Of a stretch of DNA of 45,546 nucleotides, positions 37,091 to 45,267 are shown one piece after another. The stretch comes from Clostridia bacterium (lineage in GTDB: Bacteria; Bacillota; Clostridia; UBA1212; UBA1255). Both the position numbers and the translations under genes were made by a program. The notes under the pieces are model-generated. The model was given only the letters and a program-made list of their open reading frames with translations. It ran no database searches and was not told the DNA's origin. Numbering within the stretch: position 1 is the first letter of the stretch; every line of letters starts with the position of its first letter. Location of the stretch: contig JAFYOJ010000049.1 in the NCBI GenBank assembly GCA_017560225.1, positions 1 to 45,546 on the forward strand, in the 5' to 3' direction.

Positions 37091-37385
37091 TGTTTTGACT
37101 CCTTTGGTATGATAGGGTTATTGTACCACGGCGTCATTGGGATGTAAAATGAAGAAAATCAACAAAAACATACTTTTTTCGTGGCAAATCGTATATTTTT
37201 GGACATTTTACCGCAAAAACATACCGAAAATACGGTCAAACCCCTGTTTCCTGGTATGAAATCTTGCAAAAAGGGCATTCCTCATCCCACTGCCCTTTTC
37301 CTAAATTTTTTCGGGAAATAATCTTCACAAATTCCGGGAAATATGGTTGAATAGTAAAAAAACTATTCATCTGGGGGAGATTGAT

Positions 37386-38162
37386 ATGTTTTACGACAAA
37401 ATGCTTAAGGAGAAGCAGCGCCTTACAAATCTTATAGAAGAGAATGAAAAGAAAATCCGACTGCTGCCGGAAGGGACCTTCTATTGCGTGGAATCCGACA
37501 CCTACCAAAAATGGTATAAAAAAATCAAAGGATGCCCGCAACAATACATACCAAAAAAAGATCAAGAATATGCCGCAAGACTGGCATACAAACGTTTCTT
37601 AGAAGCACATAATGAAGACTTAGCGCAGGAATTGGCTGCAGTCAATGCATTTTTGCAAAAATTCCCCACAACCAACAAAAGTCAGGCGTTGTTAGAGAAA
37701 AAGGGATATCAAGATTTAATTTGTACATTCTACCAACCTTTAAATCGGGATTTAAGGGATTGGGAACAGGGCCATTTTCCCCAAAATCCATACCGTCCGG
37801 AAGGCAAAATCCACCACGTCCGCCCCGGTCTTTCCGTGCGTTCCAAATCGGAAACGTTGATTGCCACGCAATTACATATCAATAAAATTCCGTTTCGCTA
37901 TGAGTGCGTTTTACAGATCGAGGGGAGGAACTATTATCCGGACTTTACCATTCGACATCCGGAAACCGGCGAGATATTTTATTGGGAACACCTGGGACTT
38001 TTAGACAATGTCACTTATACAGAGCGCGCAGCCCAAAAAATGCAAATTTACGCCAAGGCCAATATTTATTTAAATAAAAATTTAATACTGACCTCCGAAG
38101 GTGCAGGCCAGCCCCTTACGATCCATGAAATCGAAAAAGCCATTCGGTATATAATTCAATAA
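37386..38162 (+). CDS. Hypothetical protein with N-terminal coiled-coil and C-terminal PD-(D/E)XK-like nuclease fold (TnsA-N/restriction-endonuclease-like)
   Basis: ORF 37347..38162. I start it at MFYDKMLKEK, with GGGGGAG 7 nt upstream. The C-terminal motifs are RSKSETLIATQL ... NYYPDFTI ... IFYWEHLGLLD ... Y..RA..K...Y. Confidence 0.5.
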   Translation: MFYDKMLKEKQRLTNLIEENEKKIRLLPEGTFYCVESDTYQKWYKKIKGCPQQYIPKKDQEYAARLAYKRFLEAHNEDLAQELAAVNAFLQKFPTTNKSQALLEKKGYQDLICTFYQPLNRDLRDWEQGHFPQNPYRPEGKIHHVRPGLSVRSKSETLIATQLHINKIPFRYECVLQIEGRNYYPDFTIRHPETGEIFYWEHLGLLDNVTYTERAAQKMQIYAKANIYLNKNLILTSEGAGQPLTIHEIEKAIRYIIQ

Positions 38163-38165
38163 TTT

Positions 38166-38624
38166 TTATCCCACTGTCAAAACATCGCCCGTAATATAGC
38201 AAGCATCCGTGCCTCCGTAATACACGGAAGTACCCCAACAGGGCATAAATTGAACGGAAACGTCCTGCGTCACAGTCAAAGAAAAAGAAACCTTCTCCCG
38301 AAAACCGTTTTCCGCCGTTACATCTTCTCCAATTTGCAGGGTATGGTAAACCGAATCTCCGATTTCCACCATACAAAATCCCGTGGAAGCCGAACCCTCC
38401 ACGTAAGCCAAAACCACATCATATGTGTCCGGCGTTAACGTCAGTGCACCGGACGTATCAAGCGCTTCAGCGCCCCGAAAAACCTGTACATTCAACAGAT
38501 AGTTGGCTGCAGCAATACGGCTATTGCCGGAATCAACGCCGGCGGTAAAATAGCCGAAGGCGGCAAAACTCATAGTCGTCAGCAAAAGTACAATGGATAC
38601 AATAGAAAAATAAATTTTCCTCAT
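38166..38624 (-). CDS. Small secreted protein, last gene of the TasA-like locus (SipW-type-like signal peptide)
   Basis: 152 aa: MRKIYFSIVSIVLLLTTMSFAAFGYFTAGVDSG... Its ATG overlaps the upstream stop (ATGA at 38621..38624). Confidence 0.65.
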   Translation of the reverse strand: MRKIYFSIVSIVLLLTTMSFAAFGYFTAGVDSGNSRIAAANYLLNVQVFRGAEALDTSGALTLTPDTYDVVLAYVEGSASTGFCMVEIGDSVYHTLQIGEDVTAENGFREKVSFSLTVTQDVSVQFMPCWGTSVYYGGTDACYITGDVLTVG

Positions 38625-39250
38625 ACCTGGCCTCCTTGCTGGGTAGCACTGACAATCAGTCCTAAATTAACTTCCGGCACCATATCGCCTCGATAATTAG
38701 CGTGAGCATCCACCGTATCCGGCATCCGTACAATAACGGCAATATAAGCCGTCTCACCGGCACCTAAGGCAGCCTTCTCCGACGCATATTGATTCAATTC
38801 CAGATTAGCAAGGGTGCAAACCTGCTCTCTTGTGCCCACAAGGGACGACAGCTCCGCCTCGTTGCCTCCCGTAACCAAGCCAAACAGTAAATAATCTTGT
38901 AAGATAAACGGATCTCCCCACACATTTTCCGCCACCGTATAACCCGTTACGTTGACCGCCGTATGAAAATCAAACGGGACAGATCCCTTGTTCTCCACTT
39001 TTAAATAAACCACTTGCACGTAACCAGGCTCATACAAAGCATTTTCATCAAAGATCTTTGTATCCGCTTCAATCGCTTGATAAGAACCATCCTCCTGACG
39101 GTAGGAAACGGCCAACTCAAAATCGGCAAAATGAAACACGTTCTGCATTTCAGGTGTTGAGTCAGAGAACCACGCAAGAGAGGTACCGGCACCCAGAATC
39201 AACCATAAAAGAATAAGGCCTACACTTAGTGTAAAAGCAATTTTCTTCAT
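38621..39250 (-). CDS. TasA/BsaA/camelysin-family secreted protein (SipW-type signal peptide)
   Basis: ORF 38621..39325. I start it at MKKIAFTLSVGLILLWLILGAGTSLAWFSDSTPE (ATG 39250), which forms an ATGA overlap with the upstream stop. The EPGYVQVVYLKVENKGSVPF strand pattern is typical of the family. Confidence 0.75.
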   Translation of the reverse strand: MKKIAFTLSVGLILLWLILGAGTSLAWFSDSTPEMQNVFHFADFELAVSYRQEDGSYQAIEADTKIFDENALYEPGYVQVVYLKVENKGSVPFDFHTAVNVTGYTVAENVWGDPFILQDYLLFGLVTGGNEAELSSLVGTREQVCTLANLELNQYASEKAALGAGETAYIAVIVRMPDTVDAHANYRGDMVPEVNLGLIVSATQQGGQV

Positions 39251-39890
39251 GCCGCTTCCCTCCTTCTGCGTAAAATAAACAACAAAATCAACACAATACC
39301 GGCACCGGCCAGCACTGTAATCCACAAAGGACGGTTAAAAGAATCGCCGGTAGGCGGCACCGGATCGTCATCTTCCACCGGAAATTCCTCCACCTTAAAA
39401 TCCCAATCCAAATACCCGGTTTGTCCGCTGTATTCATTCCCCAGTGTCACCGGCACTTCCAAAAGAACTTCCAAGTTTACAACCCCACCGGAATATAAGG
39501 TGCCCAAACAAACCCAGTCGGAAAGTTGTGCCGTTTCGGAAGCAGCCGCGTCAAACATATAGGCCATGGTGTTATTCGATGCAGTGCGCACTTTCAGACC
39601 CAACTGAGACAGAAAATCCTGAGAGTCCGCCTGCGCACCCAATGCACGCAAATAAATCTTGACTTTCACTTCCTTGGAAGCCGCATTCTTCACTTTAATT
39701 TTTTGCACCAAGGTATCCCCGGGCATAACGTCCTTAAATTCCGGAAACAGGTCCGTGGGAGACTGACTACTGCCGGGGGTAAAAATAAATTCACCCGAAT
39801 CTCCGGCATACGTGACGGTGCCTTCCTTTGCCATAGTCGGCAGACTGAAACACAGCAGCAATATGAAATCATGCAAAAAACTCTTTTCAT
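39247..39890 (-). CDS. Cell-wall-anchored (VPPTG sorting signal) beta-sandwich protein; the canonical RBS-ATG is out of frame with the body across a T6 (plus-strand A6) tract
   Basis: The body frame is ORF 39247..39942. It reads ...FLHDFILLLCFSLPTMA/KEGTVTYAGDSG..., then MPGDTLVQKIKVKNAAS..., and ends in VPPTGD, a TM helix (WITVLAGAGIVLILLFIL) and RRRREAA. The only SD-preceded ATG (39890, GAGGTGG 6 nt upstream, 11 nt after the upstream stop) is in the frame of ORF 39690..39917. One extra T in the 39875..39880 tract would join the two as MKRVFLHDFILLLCFSLPTMA. Confidence 0.6.
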
Positions 39891-39901
39891 CCTGCCACCT
39901 C

Positions 39902-40468
39902 TTATTCCATCGGCCAACCGGAAGCCGTATAGGTCTTTCCATCTGTAATAGGATTATGTTCGCTTTGCACTGCGTGGGCAGAAACGGTCAAGGATAACGT
40001 CTTACCAATATAACTGTTATCCACTTTATCTCCTACGATTTCCACGTGAGAGAACACGTAGGGCGTGGTCTCACCGGGCGTTAAAATACCTTTATAGTAA
40101 TACCAACCCTCATAATACTCCCAATGGGTCTCGTTAATGTTCAACTTAAAACAGTCCTCTGCAGAAAGTTCCTGGGCATTCACACCGTATACCACTTTTA
40201 CCCGCAGGTAAAATGGGTGTGTGCACGTATTCTCAATGGTCACTTCTTTACTAACCACGTCACCGGGAACAATATACGCACCTTCTTCCGGGAAGACGGT
40301 ACCCTGATCCGTTGTTTCGTGAATAATAAACTGTATTTCCCCGGAGGTGACCACGTTGGTCGCCTTGCCGGTGGTGGAGTAAAATGCAAGAGTGCCTTGT
40401 GCAAAGAAGGTCATTAAAATGGTCACCAGTGCGACTGCGACAATTTTCAACTTTATACTTCTCAACAC
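39902..40468 (-). CDS. TasA/BsaA-family small fibre-type subunit (SipW-type signal peptide)
   Basis: 188 aa. The start is GTG 40468 or TTG 40465, with AAGGAGG upstream. The sequence reads SIKLKIVAVALVTILMTFFAQGTLAFYSTTGKATNVV... It continues VPGDVVSKEVTIENTCTHPFYLRV and ends TLSLTVSAHAVQSEHNP. Confidence 0.8.
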   Translation of the reverse strand: MLRSIKLKIVAVALVTILMTFFAQGTLAFYSTTGKATNVVTSGEIQFIIHETTDQGTVFPEEGAYIVPGDVVSKEVTIENTCTHPFYLRVKVVYGVNAQELSAEDCFKLNINETHWEYYEGWYYYKGILTPGETTPYVFSHVEIVGDKVDNSYIGKTLSLTVSAHAVQSEHNPITDGKTYTASGWPME

Positions 40469-40565
40469 AAAAACCTCCTTTATTGTTTATTTAGAAAGAA
40501 GGGCATCAGACGATATTGGGGGATGCATATCCAATGCCCTCTACCTTGGGAAATCCCTCGGCAGT

Positions 40566-40594
40566 CAAAAGACACAAATTCCAAAACTTGTGTC
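40566..40594 (-). terminator. Intra-locus hairpin with U-tract (partial terminator/attenuator) between the 625-aa and 188-aa genes
   Basis: The minus strand reads GACACAA-gttttggaat-TTGTGTC-TTTTG. A longer imperfect hairpin lies at 40600..40639 (ATTGCCTGTCCTATCC...GGATAGGCGGCAAT) and a third at about 40498..40545. Confidence 0.5.
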
Positions 40595-40646
40595 CTTTGA
40601 TTGCCGCCTATCCCCGGGAAAGAGGATAGGACAGGCAATACACACA

Positions 40647-42524
40647 TTACCATTCCCAAACATTTGGTGCCATTGTTTTATTTAAGATATAACCACCATT
40701 TTGCGTATATGTCTTCGTACCATCGTTGTACGTAAGATTGCTATAATTAAAATGATATTGTGTTCTGGGTGTAGCAGAACGGTAACTGGTAGAAACAACT
40801 TGTGCTTTACCATAAATTACCGTATTCTCCACATATAAATATGCGTCGCAATACGTACCGGCCGCATCGTTATTTGCATTGACGTAAAAGGCGGCATTAT
40901 TGAAGCCGTAACCTTCATTTTTGTATACAATCAAGTCATAGCACTTAACCATCGAACGACGAATGGATTGGACAGCACCTACGTCTTTATTTTTTGTAGT
41001 TGCACCAACCTTCACATTCAGATAAAGATTTCGAATAGTTACCTGAATGTAATCCTCTTTTGTACCACTACAGTTAAATAAATGCTGCGCAGAACCGGAT
41101 TGCCGTACAATTTCAATATTTTCTTTATCTCCAAGTCCGACAATATCCATACTGGAATATACACCAATCGTCGTCGCCTCGTTGTAGACGCCCGGAAGAA
41201 TATATACCGTGGAGAATTCTTGATTTTGAAGTCCGCTGATTAAACTCCACAATTTACCGGACTGGTTCTTTGTAACTTCATAATTTCCGTTTTCCGCAAC
41301 ATAATAATCTGCGTCATCTGCAGCAACCAGTGTCGTGGTTGCACGTTCTGCAATCACATAGTGTTTCTCGCCATTCTTAGTATAGTTAATTGCAATATAC
41401 GCCGAATCAGCTGCTGCCAAAGTCGGATCAAAAGTTGCCGGATTTACACCTTTAAAGTCGCCACCAATAAGATGCCCATCTTCAGACACGCGAATATTTT
41501 CGCCTACACTTGCATAAACAACTTCAAACACGCCGGATCCACTCGTTTGGAACGTAACAGCTTGATTATTGTAAGTAACATTGGAAACCGCCGCGTTACT
41601 TGCTCCCAAGTTTTTAACGCTTAGGACATTTTTAAACTGTCCCACCTCAACAGAAACTGCGAAAAGCGTTTCTTCTGCAGTTACTAGCATCGTTGTTTCA
41701 ATATTCAAACTAAACACCAACGAGGTCTGGTCTTCGCTCACACTGTCAACAACATTGGTAATGGACACCGCATAGGTGCCTGCCGGCGCAGAAGCCGGAA
41801 CCATCACATCAAATTTACCGGCCGAAAGTACCATCGGCACATCTGTCAATTTTGTTTCTGTTGCCACCAGCGGATATGTAGCATTTTGATCATACTGATC
41901 ATCAAAAGAGTCCGCTTCAAAAGTATCTTGCGTTGCCAGAACTTGAATATCAAACGGACCAATTGCAAGACCCTGATATTCATTTCCCGCAGTTTCTTGC
42001 ATCTTAAGCGCAATACCTAAGTATGCAGCACGCTCAGCTTCCAACTTACCTTGCGTTGTTGTTTCAATTGTATTTATAAACTGACGCAATGTACCAACTT
42101 TCGTATATCCTGCAAGATTGCGATCCACAGGATATGTGAGCGCTTCCGTTTTGCTGGAACATACATATACATCAATAACATCGGCTAAAGAAGAAATTTC
42201 ACTATCAGAAACAAACTTCGCATACCACTTAAGCGAAAGTGTTCCTTCATTTTCAATTTTGAGAATTTTAACATCCATATAACCGGGTTCCCATTTATTG
42301 TAGTTATAAAGAGGCGCCCGAGACTCCTTAATAGAGTTCCATTTACCATCTTGCCCAAGTAATTCAAGGTCAACGTTTAATGATCCGGCTTGAATTTTAT
42401 TGCCGTTGGATGTAACACTATCTGTAAACCACGCAAATGTACTGCCAGCCAACATAGAGATACACAAAACCAGCGCACAAACACTTGTAGCCAGAGCACT
42501 TTTTGTACTTTTCATTTTTACCAT
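40647..42524 (-). CDS. Large secreted protein: TasA-like N-terminal domain (SipW-type signal peptide) fused to a roughly 400-aa beta-helix-like C-terminal region
   Basis: 625 aa, with GGGGAG 7 nt upstream of ATG 42524. The N-terminus is KSTKSALATSVCALVLCISMLAGSTFAWFTDSVTSNGNKIQAGSLNVDLE, followed by WEPGYMDVKILKIENEGTLSLKW. The C-terminal region is repetitive and beta-rich (…VTIRNLYLNV…FYVNANNDAAG…). Confidence 0.8.
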   Translation of the reverse strand: MVKMKSTKSALATSVCALVLCISMLAGSTFAWFTDSVTSNGNKIQAGSLNVDLELLGQDGKWNSIKESRAPLYNYNKWEPGYMDVKILKIENEGTLSLKWYAKFVSDSEISSLADVIDVYVCSSKTEALTYPVDRNLAGYTKVGTLRQFINTIETTTQGKLEAERAAYLGIALKMQETAGNEYQGLAIGPFDIQVLATQDTFEADSFDDQYDQNATYPLVATETKLTDVPMVLSAGKFDVMVPASAPAGTYAVSITNVVDSVSEDQTSLVFSLNIETTMLVTAEETLFAVSVEVGQFKNVLSVKNLGASNAAVSNVTYNNQAVTFQTSGSGVFEVVYASVGENIRVSEDGHLIGGDFKGVNPATFDPTLAAADSAYIAINYTKNGEKHYVIAERATTTLVAADDADYYVAENGNYEVTKNQSGKLWSLISGLQNQEFSTVYILPGVYNEATTIGVYSSMDIVGLGDKENIEIVRQSGSAQHLFNCSGTKEDYIQVTIRNLYLNVKVGATTKNKDVGAVQSIRRSMVKCYDLIVYKNEGYGFNNAAFYVNANNDAAGTYCDAYLYVENTVIYGKAQVVSTSYRSATPRTQYHFNYSNLTYNDGTKTYTQNGGYILNKTMAPNVWEW

Positions 42525-42553
42525 TGTATAACTCCCCTTTGAATTTAAGTTGC

Positions 42554-42583
42554 CATTTCTCCCTCCTAAAAGAGGGAGAAATG
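42554..42583 (-). terminator. 12-bp perfect hairpin between the 881-aa and 625-aa genes (attenuator/processing element; no clear U-tract)
   Basis: CATTTCTCCCTC-ctaaaa-GAGGGAGAAATG. Confidence 0.4.
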
Positions 42584-42621
42584 ACTCATTAAATGATCCA
42601 ATAAATTAATACACAACCAGA

Positions 42622-45267: not shown

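Follow-up and report, generated by a model that had tools for sequence, protein, structure and literature searches.

Two giant proteins with a TasA-like head and beta-helix cargo, encoded in a SipW-linked operon of an uncultured Clostridia bacterium, as candidate cargo-bearing subunits of a surface fibre

The stretch of DNA analysed here, called the window throughout, comprises 45,546 nt of a Clostridia bacterium (assembly GCA_017560225.1, contig JAFYOJ010000049.1). The region under study, positions 40647-45267 on the minus strand, holds two adjacent genes for giant proteins of 881 and 625 amino acids (aa), as read from the open reading frames (ORFs) of the window. The first gene (42622..45267, minus strand) lies in an ORF spanning 42622-45288, which would encode 888 aa if read from the first ATG and encodes 881 aa from M8 at position 45267; the 881-aa form is the version present in public collections (P0001). 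The second gene (40647..42524, minus strand) encodes the 625-aa protein (P0121). An earlier reading of the letters alone, referred to here as the original prediction, had described the two as paralogues in which a TasA-like N-domain is fused to different beta-helix-like C-terminal regions. We followed it up with profile, structure and genome-context analyses, in which both proteins were predicted as monomers with AlphaFold2 (mean predicted local distance difference test, pLDDT, 87.4 for the 881-aa and 82.8 for the 625-aa protein) and the models were compared with the PDB using Foldseek. The results point to the giants as candidate cargo-bearing subunits of a TasA/BsaA-type fibre.

The two giants align by BLASTP with 35% identity over 261 positions (E 5e-29), and no alignment was obtained between them outside the N-domain. 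The proposed paralogy of the N-terminal module was therefore confirmed, whereas its proposed length of roughly 130 residues was not: the module common to both proteins is the entire N-domain of about 220 aa, up to an ATQ...E.DSF..YD motif. All of the strings on which the original prediction had relied were located by string search in both proteins; in the 881-aa protein KSTKRALL... begins at residue 5 and WEPGHTEV... at residue 79, and the two strings quoted for the 625-aa protein begin at residues 5 and 78.

The head of the 881-aa protein (aa 1-207; 44647..45267, minus strand) consists of a SipW-type signal peptide, a putative donor strand (WFTDSVTSSNNRIVAGNLDIEL) and a TasA-like beta-sandwich. 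Both giants exceed the gathering score of 22.5 of the Pfam family Peptidase_M73 (PF12389; the TasA/CalY family), at 29.0 bits for the 881-aa and 30.3 bits for the 625-aa protein, and they match the signal-peptide model TIGR04088 'cognate_SipW' with 25 and 30.3 bits, respectively, against a cut-off of 19; Peptidase_M73 is matched by 65 of the 67 representatives of the family in a Pfam tally. In the models the heads have a pLDDT of about 80-88, and Foldseek relates them to the TasA fibre structure 8aur_A with a probability of 1.00 (881 aa) and 0.98 (625 aa), at target template modelling (TM) scores of 0.41 and 0.36, and to the archaeal bundling pilus AbpA (7ueg_A) with a probability of 1.00 for both. 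The alternative that the N-terminal region might be a signal anchor followed by an unrelated fold was thus checked against Peptidase_M73, TIGR04088 and the two structures, and was not borne out. Canonical members of this superfamily are single-domain proteins of about 190-260 aa, and the giants, with 881 and 625 aa and three or four extra domains, are not; the only members of their operon that fit this description are the small proteins p209, p188 and p228, described below. The heads share with the superfamily its profile, leader, fold and linkage to SipW, and they depart from it in not standing as single domains.

The segment FAWFTD...I..G.LD is invariant across the homologue alignments, namely two of full-length homologues (A1, n=35; A2, n=49) and one of family representatives (A4, n=67). 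It lines up with the cleavage site and the donor strand of TasA (A27|A28, residues 28-38, F39; PMC9674648), and by this alignment with A27|A28 cleavage of the giants is predicted at TFA|WFTD. The same segment is the only part of the head modelled with low confidence (residues 28-44 of the 881-aa protein, pLDDT <50; residues 32-44 of the 625-aa protein). A conserved segment that packs poorly in a monomer model is what a donor strand would be expected to look like, which suggests, rather than proves, that the heads may polymerise by N-terminal donor-strand exchange.

The head is followed in the 881-aa protein by a linker (aa 208-225) and a strand-rich, Ig-like spacer (aa 226-365), which together occupy 44173..44646 on the minus strand. 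A motif of the form ATQxxxExDSF(G/D)xxYD directly follows the last head strand, at residues 205-220 of the 881-aa protein (window ~44608-44655) and 197-212 of the 625-aa protein. Its core, E.DSF..YD, is invariant in A1, A2 and A4, was found with a regular expression in 111 of 144 representatives, and is missing from the orthologues of p209, a cargo-less paralogue of the head, which stop 3-6 residues past the ATQ strand. In the 881-aa model the pLDDT falls to about 54 at residues 210-220 and then rises to 86-90, with 11 strands at residues 239-357. The motif may be a Ca2+ site, an inter-subunit contact, a hinge or a cleavage site. If it were the last of these, the head could be a removable pro-domain or carrier that is cut from its cargo at the linker after SipW-dependent export, releasing the cargo; a motif invariant in the giants, missing in cargo-less p209 and lying in a segment of low confidence would fit this possibility. 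We nevertheless regard it as very improbable, given that there is no protease signature, that the TasA family offers no precedent, and that Ca2+ binding would be just as possible for an acidic motif, as is the case at the subunit interfaces of archaeal TasA-superfamily filaments (10.1101/2024.12.30.630787).

The Ig-like spacer announced by the original prediction was recovered in the 881-aa model as the strand-rich block at residues 239-357, and it is followed by two blocks of beta-helical strand repeats, at residues 395-650 and 656-881. The first beta-helix domain (aa 366-655; 43303..44172, minus strand; pLDDT 90-98) appears as a glycine-ladder solenoid resembling GLUG and Peptidase_M26_N proteins, and its Foldseek matches include tailspikes and the pneumococcal IgA1 protease 7uvl_P. 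The five glycine motifs that had led to the GLUG proposal were all found, VGLFGDT at residue 443, VGVVAGQ at 470, VGGVVGFN at 539, VGGAFGIA at 569 and MGGIAGVW at 605, but the Pfam family GLUG (PF07581) itself has no match in the 881-aa protein, even at E<=10. GLUG and Peptidase_M26_N (PF05342) matches of the homologues P0074, P0086, P0038 and P0045 map to residues 443-563 in alignments of 33-62% identity. The region is thus related to these families, and the GLUG label of this domain, given by homology transfer and motif shape only, is provisional. The second beta-helix domain (aa 656-881; 42625..43302, minus strand; pLDDT 90-96) is assigned to the Pectate_lyase_5 type (PF20585, 'putative pectate lyase-like adhesive domain'), with 28.3 bits against a threshold of 24.3 for residues 672-777 of the 888-aa ORF, covering profile positions 2-118 of 126. 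It ends in a Cys-ladder of NCxF repeats (Cys 780, 793, 813, 824, 835 and 855). The last 226 residues contain 12% Thr, 11% Gly and 11% Asn, in agreement with the Asn/Thr/Gly-rich beta-helical C-terminus that had been proposed. As a side observation, the top PDB match of the whole 881-aa model is the Enterococcus faecium WxL-interacting protein (WxLIP) 9i25_C (E 9e-4, probability 0.99, TM 0.27), a weak, multidomain match; WxLIP is a component of another Gram-positive surface complex.

The 625-aa protein is built of the head (aa 1-199), the linker, strand-rich middle domains (219-400) and a right-handed beta-helix (437-615) in the AlphaFold2 model, so that the different beta-helix-like tail expected for it was found both in the model and by Foldseek. 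The best structural relatives comprise the catalytic domain of a GH87 alpha-1,3-glucanase (6k0q_A, E 5e-5) and the beta-helix protein ORF18 of phage E2 (7chu_A, probability 1.00), followed by the Vibrio matrix lyase RbmB (9ozl/9ozd, 0.96-0.98), 8tne_A (0.95), pectin methylesterases and inulin fructotransferase. The beta-helix has no Pfam match in the protein itself, and PF12708 is matched in some of its homologues. In the alignment of 49 homologues, a patch of polar residues (R480, H481, N484, D514, N515, Q519, R522, K525 and K527) is invariant or nearly so, which is compatible with an enzymatic role. The 625-aa protein could accordingly be imagined as a polysaccharide lyase or hydrolase of pectin-lyase fold, tethered to a fibre or matrix and remodelling matrix, dietary or host glycans, as the glucanase, RbmB, methylesterase and fructotransferase matches, the PF12708 homologues and the R480-K527 cluster would allow. 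We consider an enzymatic cargo improbable, as no CAZy-type family is reached through Pfam or NCBIfam, the TM-scores are low, and beta-helices are equally common among pure adhesins.

The combination of head and cargo is by no means confined to the window. In an exhaustive HMMER search the 225-aa head matched at least 6,259 representatives of clusters defined at 50% identity at E<=1e-3, and 1,558 at E<=1e-30. Among the best 150 matches the head always spans residues 1 to ~225 (52-68% identity) in proteins of 227-1,265 aa, and all except one carry 100-1,000 aa of cargo, the remaining one being cargo-less. The Pfam tally of the 67 representatives lists Beta_helix (8), Peptidase_M26_N (7), Pectate_lyase_5 (4), BspA-type LRR_5 (3), DUF6273 (2) and DUF4625 (2), with DUF285, GLUG, LRR_8, NosD and pentapeptide once each; most of the cargo in these representatives is unannotated, and what can be identified is adhesin-like. 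A genome scan located at least 560 copies of the head in species-representative genomes, and the 80 copies that were read all belong to uncultured Bacillota of gut or rumen. Nearly all of these carry the label Clostridia or Eubacteriales, with members of Oscillospiraceae, Acutalibacteraceae, Faecousia and Lachnospiraceae among them, and a single contig has the label Bacilli. The recurrence of the architecture in related genomes, which the original prediction had suggested looking for, is therefore massive and its cargo varied. The homologues number in the thousands and are either unnamed or called 'SipW-dependent-type signal peptide-containing' proteins, and the suspicion that they might prove to be well-characterised stand-alone enzymes was not upheld. 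Heads are only modestly more alike within genomes (56% identity) than between genomes (47%), a weak sign of concerted evolution.

The SipW motif is missing in 18 of the 120 best matches of the 881-aa protein, and most of these 18 are Bacteroidales-type lipoproteins. The exceptions are P0082, a TasA-head protein with the variant motif YAWFTE, and P0042 and P0111, which resemble N-terminally cut fragments and have no lipobox. The lipoproteins carry a lipobox Cys and, about 40-50 residues further in, the conserved Arg/Lys that is a signature of type V pilins, and their N-terminal module is either the 'fimbrillin-like' Mfa_like_1 of Pfam (P0114, E 2.5e-17, full profile) or DUF6562, which hhalign connects to the fimbrillin module at 87%. 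A relationship between DUF6562 and the TasA-like head as mounting modules was considered and rejected, the hhalign probability being 0.3%. Behind these pilin modules lies the cargo of the 881-aa protein, at 61-64% identity over ~500 residues, as close to it as the cargo of other Clostridial homologues and with a higher identity than is seen between heads from different Clostridia. In type V pili a C-terminal strand is donated by stalk and anchor pilins and is lacking in tip pilins (PMC13655056), so that a fimbrillin module with a large C-terminal cargo fits the tip class. The presence of the same and similar cargo on two unrelated pilin modules of the strand-exchange kind, in two phyla that share a habitat, implies horizontal exchange of the cargo. 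It also suggests that the head serves to mount cargo on a fibre and is, by analogy, the strongest indirect support for this role.

The Bacteroidales genes themselves were seen in an array of four Mfa_like_1 lipoprotein genes with large cargo (Pectate_lyase_5, Pectate_lyase_5, LRR_5 and one of no known family; L083:8001-18514 and L084). P0114 lies in this array, downstream of genes with DUF3575 and DUF5119, and the first gene carries a cargo with 61% identity to the one in the 881-aa protein. NCBIfam named nothing useful in the array. The array and the contigs of the window come from metagenomes of one study.

The window ends inside the operon to which the giants belong, and its structure could be extended with four public contigs (L001-L004) encoding an identical 881-aa protein. 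The order of genes is sipW-(tm69)-sipW-p228-[1-3 giants]-p188-p214-p209-p152 and is seen in about 15 species genomes, and within this constant frame the genomes differ in how many giants they have and in what cargo these carry. The link to a SipW-type locus that had been anticipated was found just past the end of the window, where two signal peptidases of the SipW type, 231 and 177 aa long, are encoded 1-2 kb upstream in L001-L004; both have the Ser and His motifs and they score 68 and 104 bits with TIGR02228 against a cut-off of 51.85. The two peptidases may serve two substrate classes, the head/p209 type and the BsaA-like type. The start of the operon (L003:3335-6066) comprises genes for a XerC/D-like tyrosine recombinase, a 52-aa zinc-ribbon protein, the two SipW-type peptidases and a 69-aa membrane protein. 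The 231-aa peptidase carries a C-terminal coiled-coil tail, and two SipW genes per locus were seen in many related loci.

The giants are accompanied by five small proteins, all encoded on the minus strand. The closest to the head is p209 (38621..39250), a cargo-less paralogue and candidate shaft subunit that matches the hidden Markov model (HMM) of the head with an E of 7e-41 and is related to it by hhalign at 100% (E 8e-87). The 228-aa protein p228, which is a small BsaA-like subunit, has a SipW-type leader and weakly matches the BsaA family TIGR04090, is represented in the window by its 3′ end only, the last 85 codons at 45288..45546 (full gene, L003:6123-6809); it is split into ORFs of 175 and 50 aa in L001:6818-7494 and intact, with 228 aa, in L003 and L004. 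Another BsaA-like small subunit, p188 (39902..40468), has a SipW-type leader (TLAFYSTTGKATNVVTSGEIQF) and a conserved C-terminus of the form ...TASGWPxE, and matches PF12389 with 23.1 bits and TIGR04090 with 33.5 bits, the latter under the cut-off. Its orthologues occupy the same operon position in 17 loci, and their C-terminal tail is strikingly conserved as AVQSENNPITDG.TYTASGWP.E. The small protein p152 (38166..38624) has in common with the head only the leader, the donor strand and the first strands (hhalign 97.8% over head columns 13-94), occupies the same operon position in 19 loci and is a candidate nucleator or cap. Further profile-profile comparisons with hhalign gave 96.6% for p188 and 93.5% for p228 against the head, 99-100% for p188 against p228, and 91.5-99.8% for p188 against p214. 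On the strength of these profile comparisons the small proteins of the operon can be placed in one superfamily with the head.

The fifth small protein, p214 (39247..39890), is recognised by hhalign and family motifs as a BsaA-like beta-sandwich protein, and differs from the others in having an ordinary Sec signal peptide and a C-terminus composed of VPPTGD, a transmembrane segment and RRRR, which resembles a sorting signal. In its family an AxA signal peptide is present in 16 of 17 members and xxTG[DE] with a transmembrane segment and a basic (K/R) tail in 14 of 17, while the SipW/donor-strand motif occurs in none of the 17. With these features p214 is a putative cell-wall anchor of the fibre.

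Both gaps following the giant genes contain a very stable hairpin on the minus strand. At 42525..42621 it is a perfect 15-bp hairpin with no U-tract (RNA fold -33.5 kcal/mol, z = -5.1), and at 40469..40646 there are three or four strong hairpins, one of them followed by UUUU (-67.2 kcal/mol, z = -6.7). A consensus terminator scan identified no canonical terminator in the intergenic gaps, the hairpin at 42525-42621 included, and these structures may stabilise the mRNA or be partial terminators that determine in what ratio the subunits are made. On the opposite strand, a 271-aa ORF (37347-38162, plus strand) without a Pfam or NCBIfam match flanks the fibre operon.

We lean towards the interpretation that the giants are subunits that bring cargo to a surface fibre of the TasA/BsaA type, built through donor-strand exchange in an uncultured gut Clostridia bacterium. 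In this proposal the domain architecture, fold class, SipW linkage, operon conservation, family size and the cargo common to Bacteroidales pilins are observed, and polymerisation is inferred from homology, operon logic and the cross-phylum analogy. All subunits would be exported by Sec, and the two SipW-type peptidases of the operon would cleave the leaders at TFA|WFTD, whereupon the freed conserved N-terminal strand would insert into the beta-sandwich of a neighbouring subunit. Cargo-less p209 would form a heteropolymer with the BsaA-like p228 and p188, and p214, with its ordinary signal peptide and no donor strand, would be an acceptor-only base tied to peptidoglycan via a housekeeping sortase. 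The giants would sit at the tip of the fibre or along its shaft and, behind the flexible acidic linker and the Ig-like spacers, would display beta-helix domains that bind, and possibly cut, glycans or host surfaces. Head-plus-cargo genes located elsewhere in the genome would plug into the same fibre and constitute an exchangeable adhesin repertoire.

Several observations weigh against this proposal. The Peptidase_M73 match spans just profile positions 3-79 of 196, the first 40%, and when the PDB was searched by sequence or profile, whether from either protein or from alignments A1 and A2, nothing meaningful was returned and TasA was never reached, so that it is found through fold comparison only; the sequence link of the heads to TasA is real but thin. 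The target TM-scores are also low (0.3-0.44), because the query models are multidomain. The models are of monomers, and strand exchange between subunits is what we infer from them. For the base, the sorting signal of p214 is recognised at the motif level only, the Pfam model Gram_pos_anchor does not match it, and a search for the TLxTC motif that covered the window and 82 loci revealed no sortase. Furthermore, p214 is frameshifted in the window assembly by a 1-nt deletion near 39865: at 39862-39868 (minus strand) the window reads GATTTCAT (T3), and three independent metagenome assemblies (L001, L002 and L003) read GATTTTCAT (T4). The missing T, which sets the start codon and the first 8 codons out of frame with the body, is the sole difference from L001 in the ~12.9 kb compared, and could be an assembly error, a real loss or a phase variant. 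No transcript data were found, the RNA sequencing runs searched including none with this stretch. In TasA the C-terminal residues 239-261 belong to the inter-subunit interface (PMC9674648), so that a bulky C-terminal cargo could hinder homopolymerisation and may restrict the giants to the tip. Finally, in 78 loci with 124 giants from 62 genomes, SipW lies within the examined locus for 52 giants and is absent from it for 72, of which 19 have wide flanks. Taken together, the constant operon frame and the giants away from SipW describe a core operon that is conserved and further head-plus-cargo genes that are dispersed.

The last two observations would be expected if the giants were monomeric adhesins, surface-bound or secreted, whose head is a domain for SipW-dependent export, a stalk or a means of wall association that never polymerises, with the small paralogues forming a separate fibre: the 72 dispersed giants lie far from SipW or small-subunit genes, and in TasA the C-terminus contributes to the fibre interface. 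We judge this explanation unlikely. Conservation in the family is highest in the donor-strand segment, which the monomer models place poorly, and the cargo-less p209 in the same operon is a head homologue at 100% probability. Moreover, if the head were a mere export tag, it would be hard to explain why the same cargo appears in Bacteroidales on another pilin module of the strand-exchange kind that is unrelated to the head.

A more far-reaching version of the fibre proposal can be advanced tentatively. Many uncultured gut Clostridia may build a polar, cell-wall-anchored, heteropolymeric pilus of the TasA type, with p214 as an acceptor-only, sortase-attached base, p209, p188 and p228 in a cargo-less shaft and swappable head-plus-cargo proteins whose genes lie in the operon as well as elsewhere in the genome. 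They may trade this cargo horizontally with Bacteroidales, where it is mounted on type V tip pilins, which would make it a convergent display system of two phyla of the gut microbiota.

Compared with known systems, the locus resembles tapA-sipW-tasA of B. subtilis (TasA fibre, PDB 8AUR; Bohning et al. 2022, PMC9674648) and CalY/camelysin of B. cereus (PF12389), with which it shares the SipW-type leader, the N-terminal A|xF(T/N)D...G.LD strand and the beta-sandwich head, as well as an operon that includes sipW and multiple tandem paralogues. It differs in that TasA and CalY are single-domain proteins of ~200-260 aa whereas the head described here bears 400-660 aa of beta-helix cargo, and in having two SipW genes, no recognisable TapA and one paralogue with a sortase signal. 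Another clostridial SipW operon with several TasA-superfamily paralogues is sipW-bsaA-bsaB-bsaC of Clostridium perfringens, whose BsaA forms polymers by donor-strand 'exchange and lock' (PMC11580942), and p228, p188 and p214 are BsaA-like, with weak TIGR04090 matches. Operons of the BsaA/TasA family often hold LPxTG proteins and multiple paralogues, suggesting heteropolymers (Kivimaki et al., PMC11580942). C. perfringens BsaA is single-domain, its oligomers are reported to have their anchor in the membrane rather than in peptidoglycan, and natural subunits consisting of a head and a giant cargo are not described for it (PMC11580942). A BsaA-FAST fusion was secreted and located at the surface (PMC11580942) and could be regarded as a precedent for a head carrying fused cargo to the surface.

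The type V pili of Bacteroidia (FimA/Mfa1 stalk, Mfa2 anchor and the donor-strand-less tip pilins Mfa4/5; PMC13655056) are alike in strand exchange, in a dedicated anchor and in tip subunits with an extra function. The Mfa_like_1/DUF6562 modules that carry the 881-aa cargo, in arrays also containing LRR_5 and Pectate_lyase_5 cargo, come from Bacteroidales metagenome-assembled genomes. Type V pilins, however, are exported as lipoproteins, primed by an Arg-protease and joined by a C-terminal donor strand, whereas TasA-type subunits are cleaved by SipW and have the donor strand at the N-terminus; their fold and machinery are unrelated, so that the likeness is one of analogy and common cargo and not of homology between the fibre modules. 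Chaperone-usher tip adhesins (FimH, PapG) and the tip pilins of sortase-assembled Gram-positive pili likewise unite fibre incorporation and a binding domain in one chain and have a base subunit proximal to cell wall or usher. They differ in folds and assembly chemistry, and the sole covalent hint in the present system is the sortase signal of p214. What is new here is the recurrence of the 881-aa cargo, at 61-64% identity, in Bacteroidales on type V pilin-like lipoprotein modules. A literature search found no paper on natural proteins with a TasA head and giant cargo, on the conserved operon frame, or on cargo held in common with type V pilins.

In Bacillus and Clostridium perfringens, fibres of the TasA type are known to serve as plain scaffolds of the matrix, and in archaea they are known as bundling pili. 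The present data suggest, and do not prove, fibres that display exchangeable adhesins. If the head is a general mount for large adhesins, this would give a function to an unnamed and very large family of proteins from Clostridia of the gut and rumen, for which 6,259 clusters and 560 genomic copies are lower bounds. Under the same condition these bacteria would possess a new kind of Gram-positive pilus, in which a sortase-anchored base carries a non-covalent, strand-exchanged shaft, and the exchange of adhesins between Clostridia and Bacteroidales would be a tractable case in which unrelated pilus systems share modules because of their habitat. As a further consequence, the head would be a candidate scaffold for the display of proteins on Gram-positive surfaces.

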